Origin: Escherichia phage 4MG
Length of the DNA: 64,000 bases
Reading direction: 5' to 3' (one strand)
Sequence record: NC_022968.1
Below are positions 11,190-50,854 of this stretch, piece after piece. The position numbers were made by a program, and so were the translations under genes. Within the stretch, counting starts at the first letter, position 1; the number at the start of each line of letters is the position of its first letter. The notes beneath the pieces are model-generated. The model was not told the origin of the DNA and did no database searches. It saw only the letters and a list, made by a program, of their open reading frames with translations.

Positions 11190-12602
11190 TTACACTCCTG
11201 CTGTTACAGTCTGACCGTTTCCGGAACTAGACCCTGTTTTATCTAACAGAACGGTCATGCGGATCTTAACGAAGTGCAGTGGTGTGTTGTACACAAGTTC
11301 CACTTTCACGTTGTTCAGAGTACGAGCAGCCAGATCGTTAGTCGGGATGTTTGCACGAAGCGGGATAGTGATCACCGGATCGTAGAACACTTTGTTAACG
11401 TCATCGTATCCGGTCAGGATAGAACCGTTAGCGATACCTACGTTGATAGGGTTGTTCAGCATCACAGACTTCAGGTTTGGCAGATCGTCATCACTCATCT
11501 TCATGGACAGGCCCTGATTAGAACGACGAGACATGTAGCCGAACACGCTTTCTTCTGTGCGGAATTTCAGCCAGTGACCGAAACGAACAACGTCAACATA
11601 GTTGCCGGAAGCACATTTGCCTTCGTAGAAGGAACCAACACCGTTAATCATACGGTAGAAGTTCAGGTTCTGACCCCAAATGGTCATACGGTCTGTTGCG
11701 CTCAGAACTGGAGCGATAACACCTTCCATAGTCTTCAGGTGAATAGAGTCACCATAAGAAGGATCGTTGGAAGCCATTGCACCGATGATACCACCTTCGG
11801 AGAACGCGCTATCCGCAAGCGGATCGTACATACCGATAGAGGTGTCGTACTGAAGAGCTTTCAGTTGGTTTGCAATAGAGTTGCTACCCGCTGTTTTAAC
11901 CAGTTCGTCAGCAGTTGCATAGACGTGCAGCTTGTAGTTAGCAGCAGCGAATGATGCAGCAGCCAGAATGGATGCGTTAGTGTGAGATTCGGTGCTCAGG
12001 AAGTACCAGTTCTCAGTTGCAGTCAGGATCTGAGGAAGAACAGAGGATACAGTTTCACTTGAAGTGTTGCTGATCACCATGTTTCCGCTGTCGCGCCCGA
12101 CGCTGAATGCACCACCGTTCTTAGGAACGATTGTTACCACACCTGCGCTTGCAGTTGCAGTCAAAACAGTGGTCAGGGTTGCATCACCGTTCAGAGATGC
12201 TGCCAGAGCGGTAGCAATACTGGTTGGTGTAGATGCACCAGTTACCGCCACGATAACGCTGGTCTGATATGCACCAGAAACTACGTTCAGGGCTACAGGA
12301 GCGTCAGGGTCGGTATTGACCTGTCCGGTGAAGTCCACGATGGTGTTAGTAAAGCCTTGACGACCAACCATCAGGTACTGAGGACGGAATGTTCCAGCGA
12401 ATGCTTTTGTTGCGAAGACATAAGCTGGGGAACCTGGAGCGAATCCATCATCTACTAGCTGATCGAGTTCGGTATAAGCGCGAAAACGTTCAGGGAAGAC
12501 GTTGTGGATAGCCAGGAACAGCGGGGTTTCAAACCCTTTGGTGTCGATTGGTTGAGTACCAAGCGCGACTGTTACGTCAACCACCTTATCATTATAAGCC
12601 AT
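11190..12602 (-). CDS. tail sheath protein (470 aa)
   Basis: 470 aa ORF followed by tube gene; N-terminus MAYNDKVVDVTVALGT typical of contractile sheath proteins. Confidence 0.7.
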   Translation of the reverse strand: MAYNDKVVDVTVALGTQPIDTKGFETPLFLAIHNVFPERFRAYTELDQLVDDGFAPGSPAYVFATKAFAGTFRPQYLMVGRQGFTNTIVDFTGQVNTDPDAPVALNVVSGAYQTSVIVAVTGASTPTSIATALAASLNGDATLTTVLTATASAGVVTIVPKNGGAFSVGRDSGNMVISNTSSETVSSVLPQILTATENWYFLSTESHTNASILAAASFAAANYKLHVYATADELVKTAGSNSIANQLKALQYDTSIGMYDPLADSAFSEGGIIGAMASNDPSYGDSIHLKTMEGVIAPVLSATDRMTIWGQNLNFYRMINGVGSFYEGKCASGNYVDVVRFGHWLKFRTEESVFGYMSRRSNQGLSMKMSDDDLPNLKSVMLNNPINVGIANGSILTGYDDVNKVFYDPVITIPLRANIPTNDLAARTLNNVKVELVYNTPLHFVKIRMTVLLDKTGSSSGNGQTVTAGV

Positions 12603-12642
12603 CGGTTTCCTCTTCTTTATTTCTGTACATACAGTTATTGAC

Positions 12643-12683
12643 CAGCACCTCGTTGTGCTGTATTATGAGGGCCGAAGCCCTCT
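12643..12683 (-). other. pair of stem-loops upstream of tail sheath gene
   Basis: CAGCAC-ctcgtt-GTGCTG and GAGGGC-cgaa-GCCCTC in intergenic region 12603..12732. Confidence 0.3.
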
Positions 12684-12732
12684 TATACGATCACTAATAA
12701 GCGAGAGCTTATCAATAACCGAGTGGTTTTCT

Positions 12733-13263
12733 TTAATCTTGAGCCGGGAAGTGATAAACGATTTGAGCGTTGATCTTCTCCAGGTCCTCGAAAGATCCGG
12801 TATCTGTTTCGATGAAGCATACGTTGAACGTAATCAGCACCACAGCACGGTTTTCGAACTTCTGCACGTTCAATGGGACTCTCAAACGAGAAATCGTCGA
12901 AGAGGATGAGTATGCAAAAGGAGAGTTGGTTGGGAAATACTTATCGTAAATGAACGGTAAGTTCATCGCCTGTAGCACCCTGCTTAAAGCATTGGGGGCC
13001 TTGCCACGGTAAGCTGTCAGAGTATACACAACCTCATAGTTGTGAACTGTCGTAGCGTTTCCGTTTACATCAAGCCCCTCGTCAGATTGCCAGTCAAGCT
13101 GGTCAACTGCTGTTAGGTCTACAAGAATGAATTCACCATCAATTTTGGGGATCTCATCCTCTCCTGCCAGAACCACCTTTCGGCCTGTGGTTTCTTTACA
13201 AAAAGAACCAACCGTTTTGGTAAGAGCATCAAAGATCTCATCGGAATTGGTGAATCCTGCCAT
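12733..13263 (-). CDS. hypothetical neck/tail completion protein (176 aa)
   Basis: ORF between head and sheath genes; function by position. Confidence 0.35.
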   Translation of the reverse strand: MAGFTNSDEIFDALTKTVGSFCKETTGRKVVLAGEDEIPKIDGEFILVDLTAVDQLDWQSDEGLDVNGNATTVHNYEVVYTLTAYRGKAPNALSRVLQAMNLPFIYDKYFPTNSPFAYSSSSTISRLRVPLNVQKFENRAVVLITFNVCFIETDTGSFEDLEKINAQIVYHFPAQD

Positions 13264-28178: not shown

Positions 28179-28257
28179 ATGCGTGGATGGGAGTCGAACC
28201 CACAATTTTCGGCTTATGAGGCCAACGTGATCTATATATCCGTTTCACTAACACGCA
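28179..28257 (-). tRNA. tRNA-Met or Ile2 (anticodon CAT), extended D-region
   Basis: hand-folded: T-loop TTCGACT, anticodon loop CTCATAA, CCA encoded; D-loop about 14 nt. Confidence 0.55.
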
Positions 28258-28266
28258 ATTGTTTGG

Positions 28267-28339
28267 TGGGACCGGGTGGACTCGAACCACCGACCATCTG
28301 CTCTTCAGGCAGGCACTCTACCAACTGAGTTACAATCCC
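28267..28339 (-). tRNA. tRNA-Phe (GAA)
   Basis: T-arm GGTGG/TTCGAGT/CCACC, anticodon loop CTGAAGA, A73, CCA encoded. Confidence 0.75.
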
Positions 28340-28349
28340 ATAAGATTGG

Positions 28350-28420
28350 TACTTCCTGGTAGAATCGAACTACCGCAACTGCCGTGTAAAGACAGGGTTC
28401 TACCATTAAACTAAGGAAGC
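28350..28420 (-). tRNA. tRNA-Val (TAC)
   Basis: T-loop TTCGATT, anticodon loop TTTACAC, CCA encoded. Confidence 0.7.
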
Positions 28421-28430
28421 ATTAAGGTGG

Positions 28431-28504
28431 TGGGCGACAGGGGACTCGAACCCCCAAAATTCGGAATCTAAATCCGACACGTATACCAATTCCATCAATC
28501 GCCC
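28431..28504 (-). tRNA. tRNA with Leu-type anticodon TAG but short (5 nt) variable arm
   Basis: 74 nt cloverleaf, anticodon stem TCGGA/TCCGA, loop TTTAGAT, A73, CCA encoded. Confidence 0.55.
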
Positions 28505-28616
28505 ATAAATGTTTGGAAGCCCATACTGTCTTCCTGATCAGCCAGAATCCTTTTCTAGCATTATCATCGGCCCTGTAGATCCTATCATTAGCCAGGGGAT
28601 CGACGCCTTAATTTGG

Positions 28617-28689
28617 TGGAGCCACTGAGAATCGAACTCAGTTCTACAAGGTGCAAGCCTGTGATTTTATCCAAATAAACTACAGCCCC
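28617..28689 (-). tRNA. tRNA-Ala (TGC)
   Basis: anticodon loop CTTGCAC; G3:U70 pair present; CCA encoded. Confidence 0.75.
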
Positions 28690-28696
28690 ATGTTGG

Positions 28697-28769
28697 TGCA
28701 AGTACAGGGATTCGAACCCCGATTCTCAGCTTCGTAAACTGATGCTCTGTCCAGTTGAACTATACCTGC
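28697..28769 (-). tRNA. tRNA-Arg (ACG)
   Basis: T-loop TTCGAAT, anticodon loop TTACGAA, CCA encoded. Confidence 0.7.
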
Positions 28770-28778
28770 TAAAATTGG

Positions 28779-28853
28779 TCGGAGCGGCAGGATTCGAACC
28801 TGCGACCCAGTGCATCCAAGGCACCCACGCTGACCAGACTGCGCTACGCTCCG
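28779..28853 (-). tRNA. tRNA-Pro (TGG)
   Basis: T-arm GCAGG/TTCGAAT/CCTGC, anticodon loop CTTGGAT, perfect acceptor pairing, CCA encoded. Confidence 0.75.
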
Positions 28854-29040
28854 AAGGTGCAGAATTTTAATTATCCCAGATACTGCAACTGGTATCGCTG
28901 GCTAGCTAATTTGATCCGCTCTGGTCACCTCGTGTGACATTGCAGACAGGCTAACCTATTCTGCAAGAGCGTATTGGGTTTGATACGTCGAACTCATTTT
29001 GAGTGCCTTCCGGCAATTTACATCAACATATCAAATTTGG

Positions 29041-29111
29041 CGGGAACTTCCTGACTCGAACAGGAGACAACCGCAGCACAAGCGGCCATTATGCCCCTTA
29101 ACTAAATTCCC
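29041..29111 (-). tRNA. tRNA with anticodon GTG (His-type) but G73 and C37, atypical
   Basis: T-arm TCCTG/actcgaa/CAGGA on plus strand, anticodon loop TTGTGCT, CCA encoded. Confidence 0.45.
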
Positions 29112-29118
29112 AATTTGG

Positions 29119-47005: not shown

Positions 47006-47695
47006 ATGAGTAAGGTTTACGAAACACTTTTAGCGATGACAAAACCAACAGATCTGTACGCATATGCGGAGCATGTTATCGAATGGAACCATGTTGCATA
47101 TCGTGCTCGCAATAATGTGGCAACACCATTCGATCTGCAATGGGGCTTTATTCGTGAAGAATTCAACGAACTCGTTGACGCACTCCGTGTTGGTGACCGT
47201 ATCGAAACTGTTGACGCTGCCTGTGATCTCTTTGTTGTAGCTTCATACGCTTGCCAGTTGAAGAGTCCTGAGTATCTTCGTGAAGCCTGTATTCCTTCAC
47301 CGACACTGACGTTCACTATTGGCGATCTTGAGCACAACCTGTATGGCAATATGCGAGACCCGGTTTATGTTCTTAAGCTGGTAACTGCATTATGTTATCG
47401 CCTTGATATTAATCTTGACTACAATATGCGACAGGTGTTACATTCAAACGATACCAAATACCCATATGTGCAAGATATCCTTGCCTTGTGGCCTGGTAAG
47501 GCGAAAGCCGAAGCTTTACGTCAAGAATGTAAGGCAATCGAAGATCGTTCCAATGGTCGTTATGAGGGTGTTGGTTTCCGCGAGGTAATTGATATCCGCA
47601 ACCCGGATGTTAAAGGTTCACGCCTTGTCTTCTTCGATAGAAACGGAAAAATCATGAAGCCAAGCACTTTCGAAAGTCCGAAAATTATTGCTTGA
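47006..47695 (+). CDS. hypothetical protein, possible MazG-like NTP pyrophosphohydrolase (229 aa)
   Basis: segment IREEFNELVDALRVGDRIETVDAACDL resembles EExxE...D motif; weak. Confidence 0.35.
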   Translation: MSKVYETLLAMTKPTDLYAYAEHVIEWNHVAYRARNNVATPFDLQWGFIREEFNELVDALRVGDRIETVDAACDLFVVASYACQLKSPEYLREACIPSPTLTFTIGDLEHNLYGNMRDPVYVLKLVTALCYRLDINLDYNMRQVLHSNDTKYPYVQDILALWPGKAKAEALRQECKAIEDRSNGRYEGVGFREVIDIRNPDVKGSRLVFFDRNGKIMKPSTFESPKIIA

Positions 47696-47719
47696 CAATG
47701 GATAAGGGGTCTGTATAAT
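47692..47719 (+). promoter_or_regulatory. consensus sigma70 promoter (TTGACA, 16 nt spacer, TATAAT)
   Basis: -35 47692..47697, -10 47714..47719; upstream of RBS GAGGAGAA and gene 47750. Confidence 0.65.
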
Positions 47720-47749
47720 GGCCCCTATCAAGACAGAGAGGAGAAAGCA

Positions 47750-47971
47750 GTGGAAGAAATTATTGATTACCCAGAGATTATTGCGTTAGCTAATCGCCTC
47801 GGCATTACTATCGTCAGTCGTGGTCCAAATACACGTTATCTGATCCGCTTCACCATGAAACGTCGCTGGGGTGGCGCTAAGAAGTACGCTTACGAATGTA
47901 CGCTTGGCACACTGACAGCGTATGTTGACCAGATTGAGCGCTCTGGTGGAAAGATTGTCGGCATTGATTAA
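47750..47971 (+). CDS. hypothetical protein (73 aa)
   Basis: ORF track; GTG start with RBS. Confidence 0.4.
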   Translation: MEEIIDYPEIIALANRLGITIVSRGPNTRYLIRFTMKRRWGGAKKYAYECTLGTLTAYVDQIERSGGKIVGID

Positions 47972-47977
47972 AAGTGT

Positions 47978-48005
47978 TTGACAAAAAGAATTAAAAAGCT
48001 ATACT
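47978..48005 (+). promoter_or_regulatory. sigma70-like promoter (TTGACA, 16 nt spacer, TATACT)
   Basis: -35 47978..47983, -10 48000..48005; upstream of RBS AGAGGAGA and ATG 48039. Confidence 0.6.
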
Positions 48006-48038
48006 GAACAGACTAAATAAACAGAGGAGAAACAAAAC

Positions 48039-48401
48039 ATGGCACGTACCGCAAAAATCAAAGTAGCACTGATCACCTCCCTGCCTTCTGACCCGGCATC
48101 CCGCGAGCGTCTGAAGTCAACCGTTAACGAAATCGTTGATCTACAGCGTCAAATCGCTGACCTGAAAGACCAGATCAAGGACATTCGTGCTGTGGAAAAA
48201 GAAAACCACAACATCTCTCCTAAGTTCCTGAATTCTCTGGTAAAACGTGAGTACGATGTGCGTTATGAAGCAGAGAAGAAGACTGCTGCACTCGATGCAG
48301 AGCAAGAGATCTTCACCGAAGCGGATATCCTGTTCGGTCGCGGCAAGCCTGCAAATGTCGCACAAACCGAAGAAGATGACGGTGCTGAGGACGCTGAATA
48401 A
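48039..48401 (+). CDS. hypothetical acidic protein (120 aa)
   Basis: ORF track. Confidence 0.4.
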   Translation: MARTAKIKVALITSLPSDPASRERLKSTVNEIVDLQRQIADLKDQIKDIRAVEKENHNISPKFLNSLVKREYDVRYEAEKKTAALDAEQEIFTEADILFGRGKPANVAQTEEDDGAEDAE

Positions 48402-48592
48402 TGAAACACTACCTTAACGCTGTTGGTATCTTCCTGTTTATCTGCATCACCTTTGGCGTCGGTGTTCCGACGCTGGTGTCAGCGAAAGATACCCTGATGC
48501 TGTGTGCTGGTTTTGCATGGATCATCGCAACACCTGCAATCGTGTGGTATTGGGCGAGAAAAGCGTTCTTCCCTAAAAAATCGGAGGCGTAA
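48401..48592 (+). CDS. small membrane protein (63 aa)
   Basis: two hydrophobic segments. Confidence 0.4.
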   Translation: MKHYLNAVGIFLFICITFGVGVPTLVSAKDTLMLCAGFAWIIATPAIVWYWARKAFFPKKSEA

Positions 48593-48756
48593 TGTTACTA
48601 AACCTGAAAGCGTCTACCTGGGAAAAGTTGCAGCACTTAGCGCGAGTTAAGAATAAGTCTGCTGCTGCCCTTGTAGCAAAAATTGTTGACGAACATGTTG
48701 ACGAGAAAGTAAAAACTACCTATAAAATTGAAGAGGAGAACCAAACCAATGCTTAA
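48592..48756 (+). CDS. small ribbon-helix-helix-like DNA-binding protein (54 aa)
   Basis: ATG 48592 after RBS GGAGG; LNLKASTWEKLQHLAR..SAAALVAKIV pattern; hand-translated. Confidence 0.35.
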   Translation: MLLNLKASTWEKLQHLARVKNKSAAALVAKIVDEHVDEKVKTTYKIEEENQTNA

Positions 48757-49639
48757 GAATATCAAACGTGTGATTTTTGCTGGCCTGATCGCTCTGGGTG
48801 CCGTTGGCCTGACTGGTTGTGAACGTGCAACTGTCCCGGCAGGTTATGTGGGTGTGAAGGTTGACCTGTATGGCGACGAAAAGGGTGTTCAGCAGCAGGA
48901 AGTGGGTGTTGGTAAATACTGGCTGACCTGGAACGAAGAAATCTATCAGTTCCCTACATTCAACCAGTTAAACAACTACGACCAACCGTTTAACTTCCAG
49001 ACCAAGGATTCTATGACGGTCTCTGCGAAGGTTGGTGTTGAGTATTACGTTGACCGCTCCAAGGTCACCAAGATCTTCCAGACCTACCGTAAAGGTGTTC
49101 AGGAAATCACTGATGTCAACATTCGTCAGAACATCTCTGATGCACTGATCAAAGAAGCGGGTACGATGGATATCGGTACGCTGGCTGGCGATGGTAAATC
49201 TCAGCTTCTGGATCGTGTGACGAAGACCCTGAAAGCGAAGCTTGACCCGATTGGTATCGTGATCGTGAAACTGTCTTACACTGATGATCTGCGTTATCCA
49301 CCACAGGTAACCGCATCCATCAACGCGAAGATCGAAGCGACTCAGAAAGCGCTGCTGCGTGAAAACGAAATCCAGCAGACCAAAGCTGAAGCTCAGAAAC
49401 AGATCGAAGCCGCTCGCGGTGAAGCTGAATCTAAGCGACTGCAAGCTCAGGGTGAGGCAGATGCTAAAGTAGCACTGGCAAAAGGTGAAGCAGAATCCAT
49501 CCAACTGCGTGGTGATTCTCTCCGCAAAAACCCAGAAATTATGCAACTGGAAGCGATCAACAAGTGGAACGGTGTGACCCCGGTCTATATGACCAGCGGT
49601 TCTCAGACCCCATTCGTTACCCTGCCAGCAGGTAAATAA
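48749..49639 (+). CDS. SPFH/band-7 domain lipoprotein (296 aa)
   Basis: signal peptide with lipobox LTGC, then SPFH-like core and C-terminal coiled coil; start within ORF 48728..49639. Confidence 0.55.
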   Translation: MLKNIKRVIFAGLIALGAVGLTGCERATVPAGYVGVKVDLYGDEKGVQQQEVGVGKYWLTWNEEIYQFPTFNQLNNYDQPFNFQTKDSMTVSAKVGVEYYVDRSKVTKIFQTYRKGVQEITDVNIRQNISDALIKEAGTMDIGTLAGDGKSQLLDRVTKTLKAKLDPIGIVIVKLSYTDDLRYPPQVTASINAKIEATQKALLRENEIQQTKAEAQKQIEAARGEAESKRLQAQGEADAKVALAKGEAESIQLRGDSLRKNPEIMQLEAINKWNGVTPVYMTSGSQTPFVTLPAGK

Positions 49640-49642
49640 GAG

Positions 49643-49675
49643 TTGACAAAAGGCCCGGTGATAGATTATCATCGG
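49643..49675 (+). promoter_or_regulatory. TTGACA box overlapping near-perfect inverted repeat CCCGGTGATA...TATCATCGGG
   Basis: intergenic between 49639 and 49703; possible promoter/operator. Confidence 0.35.
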
Positions 49676-49702
49676 GTCTCAACTTAACAAAGGAGATACA
49701 AA

Positions 49703-49897
49703 ATGATCCGCACAACAATTCTTTTAGCAGTAGCTCTGCTCTCTTCTCCGGCGTTCGCCACAGTTAATACACTCTCTTTGGTAGATGAATACACCGATGG
49801 GAGTTCTAAAGTATGCATCTACAGCGACGGTAACCGTACCGAAAGCGTTGTGAAAGAAGGTGCTGGCTCATGTCCGTCTAAAAAGACGTTCCACTAA
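49703..49897 (+). CDS. small secreted protein (64 aa)
   Basis: N-terminal signal peptide MIRTTILLAVALLSSPAFA. Confidence 0.4.
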   Translation: MIRTTILLAVALLSSPAFATVNTLSLVDEYTDGSSKVCIYSDGNRTESVVKEGAGSCPSKKTFH

Positions 49898-49908
49898 GAG
49901 GATGAACC

Positions 49909-50415
49909 ATGAGAGTAACTGATCAGCATGTTTTCTTCTTCACTTATCGTGATATGTTCAGCAACCACTTTCGACAGATAATTCCTATTCGTTGTGGTGG
50001 CTATGAGTTCTTCACGGTGGAGCACTTTATGATGTTCCAAAAAGCAATGCTCTTTGATGACAAAGAGATTGCTGCACGTATTGCCACAGTTGATAATCCA
50101 AACGAGGCAAAAGCGCTGGGTCGTAAAGTCAGGGACTTTGACAACAGTGTTTGGGAAGAAAACAGAATGGACATTGTAACAAACGGTCTTGTTCTGAAAA
50201 TGAAGGCTAACCGCTCTATTCTGGAGTCTGCACTGACTCACAGAGATGCTGGGCGGCGATTTGTAGAGGCATCCCCGTATGATGCAATCTGGGGTGTAAA
50301 ACTGAATGAATATGATCCACGCATTGATGATCCTGCTAACTGGCAAGGTCTTAATCTTCTCGGTGAGTGCTGGGAAAGAGCAATTGATGTTGTGATCGCA
50401 GCTTCGTGGAGGTGA
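49909..50415 (+). CDS. NADAR-domain protein (YbiA-like, DUF1768) (168 aa)
   Basis: N-terminal FFFTYRDMFSNHF, EHFMMFQKAML, later WGVKLNEY block characteristic of YbiA/NADAR family by recall. Confidence 0.6.
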   Translation: MRVTDQHVFFFTYRDMFSNHFRQIIPIRCGGYEFFTVEHFMMFQKAMLFDDKEIAARIATVDNPNEAKALGRKVRDFDNSVWEENRMDIVTNGLVLKMKANRSILESALTHRDAGRRFVEASPYDAIWGVKLNEYDPRIDDPANWQGLNLLGECWERAIDVVIAASWR

Positions 50416-50416
50416 G

Positions 50417-50854
50417 TTGAAATTAGAGATTGAACTTGTTCCAAAAACAGCTTGGTTTACTAACTTACGCTCTCACCTCACTAAATCCCAATGGGATGTC
50501 GTAAGAAAGAAATGCTATGCCAAAGCCAATTACAGATGTGAGATTTGTGGTGGTAAAGGGAATAAGCACCCTGTTGAGTGTCACGAAATCTGGGACTTTG
50601 GTAATGGTAAGATCACGCTGAAAGGTCTTATCGCGCTCTGCCCGTCATGTCACGAAGTAAAACATATCGGCCTTGCTGGTATTCGTGGAAGAGGAGAGAT
50701 TGCCCTTCGTCACTTCATGAGGGTCAACAATGTCTCCCGACAGGTTGCAGAGAAATACGTGAGCGAGGCATTTGCCTTGTATCATGAACGGAGTAAGCGA
50801 GAGAAATGGGAACTGGATGTCCGGTATTTGGACGAGTATTTGAGTAACGATTGA
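50417..50854 (+). CDS. HNH-like zinc-finger nuclease (145 aa)
   Basis: TTG start after RBS GGAGG; CEICGG...ECHEIWDF...CPSCHEVKH. Confidence 0.45.
   Translation: MKLEIELVPKTAWFTNLRSHLTKSQWDVVRKKCYAKANYRCEICGGKGNKHPVECHEIWDFGNGKITLKGLIALCPSCHEVKHIGLAGIRGRGEIALRHFMRVNNVSRQVAEKYVSEAFALYHERSKREKWELDVRYLDEYLSND

Follow-up and report, generated by a model that had tools for sequence, protein, structure and literature searches.

A probable early operon of Escherichia phage 4MG carries a widespread SPFH membrane-protein cassette and a lineage-specific ribbon-helix-helix-like gene

SPFH scaffolds are now structurally understood as membrane cages, and many copies of them are carried by phages without an assigned role. 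Papers on phage genomes have recorded SPFH genes from 2006 onward (PMC1524935, PMC3220722), and RefSeq annotates the gene products as lipoproteins; those that fall into PHROG 200 include proteins of the N4 gp20 type, phi1026b gp48, RB43 ORF139c and the SPFH proteins of Vi01-like phages. Among cellular systems the closest are HflK/HflC with FtsH in E. coli, and the SPFH-NfeD operons, such as QmcA-YbbJ (PDB 8z5g) and the stomatin pair PH1511-PH1510, in which the NfeD partner has been proposed to promote oligomerisation of the SPFH protein (PMC13086221). Here we describe an SPFH locus in a 64,000-nucleotide stretch of DNA (sequence record NC_022968.1; below, the window), which represents an Escherichia phage 4MG-like genome of the Vequintavirinae. 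The locus is most likely an early four-gene operon carrying a widespread membrane-cage cassette, made of a protein with two transmembrane segments (2-TM) and an SPFH lipoprotein, whose function is predicted. An initial annotation, made from the letters alone and correct in taking the DNA for that of a phage, had singled out a 54-residue ribbon-helix-helix (RHH)-like open reading frame (ORF) and the SPFH gene that it overlaps as a pair with its own regulator; it missed both the four-gene chain and the conserved SPFH partner, encoded at 48401..48592.

The SPFH lipoprotein is the 296-residue product of the last gene of the chain (48749..49639, + strand). Its residues 28-215 match Pfam Band_7 (PF01145) at E=1.9e-21 (77.3 bits; gathering score 23.6), and the protein belongs to PHROG 200 (phrog_200, 'lipoprotein', E=7.7e-91) and finds QmcA, HflC and prohibitin-2 among the sequences of the PDB. 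An AlphaFold (AF2) model built from 55 homologues (predicted local distance difference test, pLDDT, 81.4) has an N-terminal signal helix, a beta-rich SPFH domain with its strands in residues 26-101, helices at 103-165 and a continuous helix of 75 residues at 185-260, and Foldseek aligns it at full length with HflC (7vhq_G, best E=1.6e-14), HflK, prohibitin, stomatin, erlin and QmcA. As modelled, an alpha/beta SPFH domain followed by a long coiled-coil helix is the architecture of the cage-forming SPFH members. The SPFH/band-7 lipoprotein of the initial annotation is therefore borne out, and what that annotation had named as grounds for giving it up, a lipoprotein lacking the SPFH fold, is contradicted by the AlphaFold and Foldseek results. 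Homologues are present in 557 phage records, whose hosts are very different.

The best structural match, along the full length, is HflC, and the best NCBIfam models are hflK and hflC; like HflK and HflC, the phage protein has an N-terminal anchor, a body predicted to lie outside the cytoplasm, and a long C-terminal helix typical of cage walls. However, identity is only about 18%, and the scores of 43.8 bits for hflK and 26.2 bits for hflC stay far below the equivalog cut-offs of 159.4 and 134.4. The phage also has a single SPFH gene instead of a K/C pair, a lipid anchor instead of a TM helix, and a dedicated 2-TM partner, and any link to FtsH would be hypothetical for the phage protein. It belongs to the SPFH superfamily and to PHROG 200 and is not an HflK/C equivalog. 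Lipidation is predicted from a lipobox, L-T-G-C with its Cys at residue 24, where MLKNIKRVIFAGLIALGAVGLTG-C24 fits the signal-peptide pattern [LVI][ASTVI][GAS]C. A lipobox is found in 44 of the 55 homologues, and the other 11 have a hydrophobic N-terminal segment without one; since lipid and hydrophobic anchors appear interchangeable, the family would reside at the periplasmic face of the inner membrane. One sub-clade from IMG/VR (loci L041-L052, L054 and L062-L068) has the hydrophobic segment instead of the lipobox and keeps the upstream 2-TM partner.

The gene encoded just upstream of SPFH in phages at large specifies this 2-TM protein, and by gene order and family membership it is the 2-TM protein, not the RHH-like protein, that is the constant partner of SPFH across phages. 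In the window it has 63 residues (48401..48592, +; phrog_1130, E=6.3e-25). We examined the ORF upstream of SPFH in five unrelated annotated phages (Klebsiella phage P18-100, a P1-like phage, an N4 isolate, Pseudomonas phage Hali and Stenotrophomonas phage Paxi), and in all five it is a two-TM ORF of 58-84 residues that overlaps the SPFH start by 4-20 nt, is not RHH-like, and matches PHROG 1130, the family of the window ORF. A sample of 80 IMG/VR loci was then assembled from SPFH relatives of at least 48% identity, which form 23 clusters at 90% and 8 clusters at 70% identity. A 2-TM ORF ends at the SPFH start in 79 of these loci, 56 of them detected by hidden Markov model (HMM) and 23 by inspection, and the remaining locus is truncated. 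The partners found by inspection are more divergent ORFs of 55-84 residues in the same position, and they share the loop motif of the 2-TM partners, P-x-[LIM]-[VLIM]-S-[SA]; across phages the protein abutting SPFH measures 55-100 residues. The pair is present in phi1026b as well, and in Salmonella prophages, where it lies between a gene for a single-stranded-DNA-binding protein and a polA gene. We read the two genes, on these comparisons, as a two-gene cassette that moves between unrelated phages: N4-like and P1-like phages, lambdoid prophages, and phages of Pseudomonas, Stenotrophomonas and Burkholderia. No RHH-like ORF stands next to SPFH in the 80 IMG/VR loci except in nine that belong to the Vequintavirinae, and none is present in any SPFH cassette examined outside Seuna-, Mydo- and Henunavirus. 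Among more distant SPFH relatives the partner varies, with a soluble helical ORF upstream in Erwinia phage M7 (35% identity) and a 1-TM ORF in Bacillus phage AR9, and the idea of a universal 2-TM partner for phage SPFH was rejected at that distance. A literature search found no published description of the 2-TM partner of phage SPFH genes. The window protein is a direct member of the family of the phage phrog_200 'lipoproteins'; the reports on those give no function and note no 2-TM partner, and this lineage alone has an RHH-like gene in the cassette.

Placed beside the SPFH-NfeD operons, the locus shares an SPFH gene that is predicted to be co-transcribed with the gene of a small membrane protein and that overlaps it, and QmcA matches the SPFH protein in both sequence and fold. 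Unlike an NfeD protein, however, the 63-residue partner lacks an NfeD/OB-fold domain and matches nothing at all in Pfam or NCBIfam, and its gene precedes the SPFH gene; moreover, QmcA cages face the cytoplasm, whereas the phage SPFH protein has an export signal. Searches of Pfam and NCBIfam for NfeD or any other membrane family gave no match for ORFs 48401-48592 and 48592-48756, and on this result an NfeD identity was rejected for both. Our reading of the gene content is that the locus resembles an SPFH-NfeD operon by arrangement only and is not one.

For the SPFH part, membrane remodelling or exclusion, as first proposed, is a reasonable guess by analogy. Its sharper form holds that the cassette is primarily a superinfection-exclusion or defence device that blocks the entry of DNA from other phages, and not a regulator of proteases or microdomains. 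An envelope-facing device that is predicted to be expressed early (after a sigma70-like promoter, and in early or replication modules) would suit such a purpose, in the P1-like phage the cassette occupies the variable accessory slot that in P1 holds tciABC (PMC9603915), and nearby genes in genomes of the N4 and Vi01 types carry a superinfection-exclusion label. Yet these neighbouring labels are similarity annotation only, PADLOC returned no match, the literature search found no experimental report, and in the Salmonella prophages examined the cassette sits in a lytic early/replication operon downstream of the repressor switch and not in the position of a lysogen-expressed moron. We regard exclusion as the primary function as possible but doubtful. 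In the P1-like phage the cassette lies between tRNA genes and ban (positions 1284-2328 of locus L006), where phage P1 has tciA-tciB-tciC (12234-12930 of locus L010). P1 TciB is itself a 2-TM protein, 54 residues long and similar in its loop, but its family is PHROG 1470 and that of the SPFH partner PHROG 1130, and homology of the two was not established.

In the window the cassette is part of a chain of four genes (48039-49639) in the order DsbA-like protein, 2-TM protein, RHH-like protein, SPFH lipoprotein. The chain is headed by a predicted sigma70-like early promoter, TTGACA-16-TATACT (47978..48005, +), with 11 of 12 consensus matches in a consensus scan, and relatives from Seuna-, Mydo- and Henunavirus keep both its -35 and -10 hexamers ahead of the DsbA-like gene. 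The first gene encodes a 120-residue DsbA-like coiled-coil protein (48039..48401, +; phrog_639, 'transcriptional regulator', E=6.5e-22; Pfam Phage_DsbA E=0.0039, under the cut-off), and it is found in 231 phage records, including Vequintavirus and Certrevirus genomes without SPFH. Consecutive genes are joined by TAATG stop/start overlaps at 48399-48403 (between the 120-residue and 63-residue genes) and 48590-48594 (between the 63-residue and 54-residue genes), and the reading frames of the 54-residue and SPFH genes (48592..48756 and 48749..49639) share the 8 nt ATGCTTAA. Both the overlap of 8 nt and an arrangement fit for translational coupling had been described correctly, and because the two upstream junctions overlap as well, that overlap is one link of a coupled chain of four genes. 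The 54-residue gene begins with ATG, 4 nt downstream of the Shine-Dalgarno (SD) sequence GGAGG, and the SPFH gene with an ATG that has AGAGGAG 10 nt upstream; both signals are kept in relatives of three genera. The mechanical list of ORFs starts the SPFH frame at a TTG at 48728, and every annotated relative uses the ATG at 48749.

The 54-residue ORF between the two cassette genes (48592..48756, +) matches phrog_13358 from end to end (E=3.9e-37) and is conserved in 64 phage records, with nonsynonymous differences per site (pN) of 0.008-0.13 against synonymous ones (pS) of 0.15-0.74, which gives a dN/dS of 0.03-0.10. By this measure it is a real gene under purifying selection and not a chance ORF, and with its conserved SD sequence it looks translated, as the initial annotation had supposed. 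An exhaustive profile search of 1.84 billion representative proteins returned 14 matches to its family, three of them long repetitive proteins that we take to be spurious, and a word-indexed homologue search for both small proteins found close relatives only. As sampled by these searches, the RHH-like family is genuinely tiny and confined to the Vequintavirinae.

Several lines of comparison converge on the RHH fold. RHH proteins carry G-x-S/T/N at the turn between their helices, and the 54-residue sequence is laid out as an LNLK segment, helix A, a G/N-K-S turn and helix B. The window protein scores 15.4 bits against Pfam RHH_4 (cut-off 25, E=0.02) and reaches E=0.004 with the RelB-like antitoxin model of NCBIfam; when 12 family members were searched, RHH_5 was matched by seven (best E 9.4e-5), RHH_4 by seven and ParG by three, and remote relatives match RHH_5, RHH_7, ParG and FitA-like models with 13-19 bits against cut-offs of 26-27. 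The four top matches of the family profile in the PDB are an Acr protein, AvtR, HP0222 and ParG, all aligned in register from residue 1-3 on; the first three are proteins that we take to be of the RHH type, and ParG is among the RHH-type Pfam models matched by the family. The top Foldseek list for the model consists mostly of RHH domains (CopA_SO, PutA, AvtR, ORF56, FitA, CopG and Arc; best E 1.2). Compared with the RHH regulators (CopG, Arc, ParG and AvtR; RHH_4 and RHH_5), the protein has their length, their alternating N-terminal L-N-L-K, and helix A, turn and helix B in register with ParG, AvtR, HP0222 and the CopG type; it differs in its sub-threshold scores, in a strand missing from the model, and in a family-specific C-terminal tail of about 18 residues. 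The label 'RHH-like' thus stands for the convergent sequence features, and falls short in that every match is below the curated thresholds. We consider it likely, with good though not full confidence, that the fold is ribbon-helix-helix.

A different account of the same protein is that it does not bind DNA at all but was acquired in one phage lineage as a cytoplasmic helper of the membrane cassette; it might, for instance, attach to the basic tail at the C terminus of the 2-TM protein, or accompany the precursor of SPFH. Its gene is embedded between both cassette genes and coupled to both, the RHH matches are sub-threshold, the AF2 monomer is a plain helical hairpin, and the conserved C-terminal tail (V40, T42, Y44) extends beyond the RHH core. 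Against this, homologues occur in phages that have neither cassette gene, at least 70 cassettes do without the protein, the weak matches are all to RHH DNA-binding domains and in the same register, and part of the conservation of the tail, the EEEN stretch, coincides with the SPFH SD sequence. We judge an accessory role quite improbable. The conserved Glu-Glu-(Glu)-Asn codons, residues 48-50 at positions 48733-48738, coincide with the SPFH Shine-Dalgarno AGAGGAG, so part of the conservation of the tail may be a constraint at the nucleotide level.

Gene order and overlap also recall type II toxin-antitoxin loci, and the pair might be a toxin-antitoxin-like unit in which an RHH antitoxin is followed by the overlapping gene of a toxic membrane protein; the NCBIfam RelB-like match would agree with this, as would the antitoxins CopA_SO, FitA, KacA and AtaR in the Foldseek list. 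But the downstream product is an exported SPFH scaffold that belongs to no toxin family, a cytoplasmic antitoxin could not reach an exported protein, PADLOC gave no match, and the SPFH gene does without any RHH gene in hundreds of phages. A toxin-antitoxin unit is extremely improbable, and it was rejected on the exported scaffold and the missing toxin-family and PADLOC matches.

The RHH-like gene can be followed independently of the cassette within the Vequintavirinae. Vequintavirus JES2013 has the DsbA-like gene alone. In Certrevirus PBES 02 and the related phage SSBI34 that gene is followed by an RHH-like homologue (93 residues in PBES 02, HMM E=1.3e-19; 76 residues in SSBI34, tblastn, 37% identity, E=5e-3) and a gene for a small secreted protein, and both phages lack 2-TM and SPFH. 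All four genes are present in Seuna-, Mydo- and Henunavirus, and these three genera alone have the RHH-like ORF between 2-TM and SPFH. These comparisons of genera indicate that 2-TM and SPFH were gained or lost together and that the RHH-like gene is independent of SPFH; its presence in the cassette is probably a lineage-specific addition and does not make it the regulator of SPFH. The proposed pairing of both proteins in a module, whose own regulator would act on the repeat downstream, is therefore not supported, since the RHH-like gene is missing from other SPFH cassettes and persists without SPFH in Certrevirus-type phages.

The repeat itself follows the SPFH gene. A promoter and an inverted repeat had been placed at 49643..49675; both exist, and folding together with a consensus scan shows that the element is larger, a two-tier GC-rich hairpin at 49640..49685 (+) whose sequence interlaces with that of a sigma70-like promoter for the gene that follows. 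The hairpin has an outer stem of 7 bp and an inner stem of 12 bp with a dG of -23.9 kcal/mol (z = -6.0), where the shuffled sequences average -9.1 and none of 200 is as stable. The predicted promoter, TTGACA (49643-49648)-18-TATCAT (49667-49672), has 11 of 12 consensus matches and would serve the gene at 49703..49897 (+), the next transcription unit, which encodes a 64-residue signal-peptide protein with two conserved Cys (phrog_4641, E=9.1e-32) whose homologues come after the RHH-like gene in SSBI34 and PBES 02, the phages without SPFH. Both promoter boxes and both hairpin arms are kept in Seuna- and Mydovirus, and in FENT2 a G->A change turns a G.U pair into A-U. In Hena1, SNUABM01 and the IMG/VR locus L019 the promoter is gone and the same place holds another hairpin, GCCCCGG-UUCG-CCGGGGC, in which L019 has a double change, CCCCAG/CUGGGG, that is compensatory and keeps the pairing. 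All of the genomes compared at the hairpin, those of the Henunavirus type included, encode the RHH-like protein. Since the structure is kept and the sequence is not, and the loop is a UUCG tetraloop, a role at the RNA level is suggested rather than that of an operator.

These observations bear on the proposal that the RHH protein is a dedicated regulator that controls an RHH-SPFH module through the inverted repeat at 49643-49675, to which it would bind. Inverted repeats are common targets of RHH proteins, the 54-residue protein has RHH-like features, its tight coupling to SPFH is kept in the 64 phage records, and the repeat is strong and overlaps a nearby promoter. The repeat, however, lies after the SPFH stop codon and within the promoter of the next gene, and in Henunavirus-type relatives, which keep the RHH-like gene, an unrelated hairpin without promoter has replaced it, in which the loop is UUCG and a change in one arm is compensated in the other. 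Similar hairpins wrapped round promoters, their stems unrelated, also stand at 47692 and 37891, SPFH cassettes elsewhere have no RHH gene, and Certrevirus phages have the RHH-like gene and no SPFH. A dedicated regulator of this kind is very unlikely. When RHH-containing and RHH-less genomes were compared for an operator-like repeat at the operon promoter, nothing convincing was found. The two other hairpin-wrapped promoters came from the scan: TTGACA-16-TATAAT at 47692-47735 (+), with a GC hairpin (GGGGTC...GGCCCC) wrapped round the -10 box, and TTGACA-18-TAGAAT at 37891-37850 (-), with GGGGTG...CACCCC in the same position. The three at 49643, 47692 and 37891 (-) have the same architecture and unrelated stem sequences, and the intergenic promoters at 47978 and 52718 have no hairpin. 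In this the elements resemble the T4-type PeSL (Arbiol 2010; Comeau 2014, PMC4122927), which likewise join an intergenic sigma70-type early promoter to a stable stem-loop, recur in several copies per genome, and lie at the border of a block of accessory genes; they differ from them in a stem that wraps the -10 box, in mutually dissimilar stems, and in the phage subfamily that carries them. An Rfam search of 47500-50100 for known RNA elements gave no match at E<=1.

The explanation that we favour, to which as a whole we give a somewhat better than even chance, is that of a four-gene operon with a 2-TM and SPFH cage cassette, an independent RHH regulator and a hairpin acting at the RNA level. 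The SPFH protein would be exported, and its lipid tail, or an uncleaved TM helix in some homologues, would anchor it at the periplasmic face of the inner membrane with the topology of HflK/C, where it would oligomerise into a domed cage. The 2-TM partner may be the membrane-embedded component of this cage, in a role like that of NfeD/YbbJ for QmcA or of the TM helices of HflK/C themselves, oriented with its conserved P-x-L-V-S-S loop in the periplasm and its basic C-terminal tail in the cytoplasm. Through early expression of the cage, part of the inner membrane would be enclosed. Our first guess is that the cage holds in or shields a client in this membrane, FtsH for instance, or makes the membrane more stable, and the main alternative is that it blocks the entry of superinfecting DNA. 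The 54-residue protein is probably a dimeric RHH DNA-binding protein specific to the Vequintavirinae, a small regulator of the early or middle programme that would act alongside the DsbA-like protein. Its gene would have come to lie inside the cassette through a lineage-specific rearrangement and not through dedication to SPFH, and the coupling would reflect the general packing of genes in the operon. The hairpin may act on the RNA as a barrier at the 3' end of the operon or as its partial terminator, joined to a promoter that restarts transcription, much as in the T4-type PeSL elements.

Several points weigh against this explanation. Every HMM match of the 54-residue family to RHH models is under the gathering score, and the AF2 monomer has a pLDDT of 66 and helices at 2-19 and 24-53 without the N-terminal strand, which forms only in the dimer; as a verdict on the RHH fold this monomer was set aside, since at such low confidence it neither confirms nor refutes it. 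The order 2-TM, RHH, SPFH is not derivable from a single insertion of the cassette beside a pre-existing RHH gene, and this order, together with its stable upkeep in three genera, means that a functional tie between RHH and SPFH could be underestimated. As no U-tract follows the hairpin at 49640-49685, termination there is not predicted by the scan. In the SPFH protein the lipidated Cys is followed by Glu, not by the Asp that holds E. coli lipoproteins in the inner membrane, which leaves room for sorting to the outer membrane, and an HflK/C-like protein of a Pasteurella prophage, studied as a virulence factor, has been reported in outer-membrane vesicles (PMC9872710). Apart from this Pasteurella study, a literature search for functional work on phage SPFH proteins turned up mentions in genome annotation only, and the cage, its client and its biological role are accordingly drawn from homology.

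The surroundings of the locus show how it is kept among related phages. Over 2.5 kb around SPFH, the DNA is 80-85% identical to that of Cronobacter phage GAP31, Enterobacter phage EC152 and Klebsiella phages of the genus Mydovirus, all of the Vequintavirinae, and the 54-residue protein has a 100% identical counterpart, annotated as hypothetical, in Escherichia phage 4MG. In these genomes the locus is flanked by genes for DNA ligase and a MazG-like pyrophosphohydrolase on one side and by NADAR, HNH and exonuclease genes on the other. Within the window an HNH endonuclease-like ORF (50417-50854, +; Pfam HNH E=0.009, under the cut-off) lies between the NADAR and exonuclease genes, and in PBES 02 a different HNH gene stands directly upstream of the DsbA-like gene; because of these two HNH genes, we see the variable block as bordered by mobile nucleases. 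Identity to the proteins of GAP31 and Seu621 is uneven, 97-98% for SPFH (pS 0.28-0.35) and 54-58% for the 2-TM protein (pS about 0.8), and the DsbA-like proteins of the window and GAP31 share 56% only. Such uneven divergence of neighbouring genes suggests either that genera have exchanged the SPFH gene in mosaic fashion or that the genes are constrained very differently. Elsewhere in the window there is a large array of tRNA genes at 28179-34878 (-), with 25 genes according to ARAGORN and 22 according to Rfam; the ARAGORN call at 30264-30333 is odd, with a two-base 'anticodon', and the Rfam tRNAs at 28179-28257 and 29459-29542 are missing from the ARAGORN list.

The genes of this locus are already annotated in more than 60 genomes, and what the analysis adds for the window is a predicted early operon of four genes, a probable small regulator, and a boundary element of promoter and hairpin. 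It also brings a correction, in that the adjacent RHH-like gene is not the key partner of SPFH. As its gene content and families indicate, the locus is an SPFH gene and a small membrane partner in a phage-specific form, with a lineage-specific RHH-like insert. A bolder statement, speculative and on balance unlikely, is that the 2-TM and SPFH proteins make up a mobile membrane-cage system that phages carry, virulent and temperate ones by the hundred, as a viral equivalent of HflK/C or of SPFH-NfeD. Built early on the periplasmic face of the inner membrane, it would capture a host inner-membrane machine, with FtsH as one candidate, or close the membrane to rival phages, and the RHH-like protein inserted in Seuna-, Mydo- and Henunavirus would link the expression of the cage to the regulatory programme of the phage. 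In any case, a 2-TM protein that travels with phage SPFH across unrelated families defines a two-gene unit for cloning and testing.

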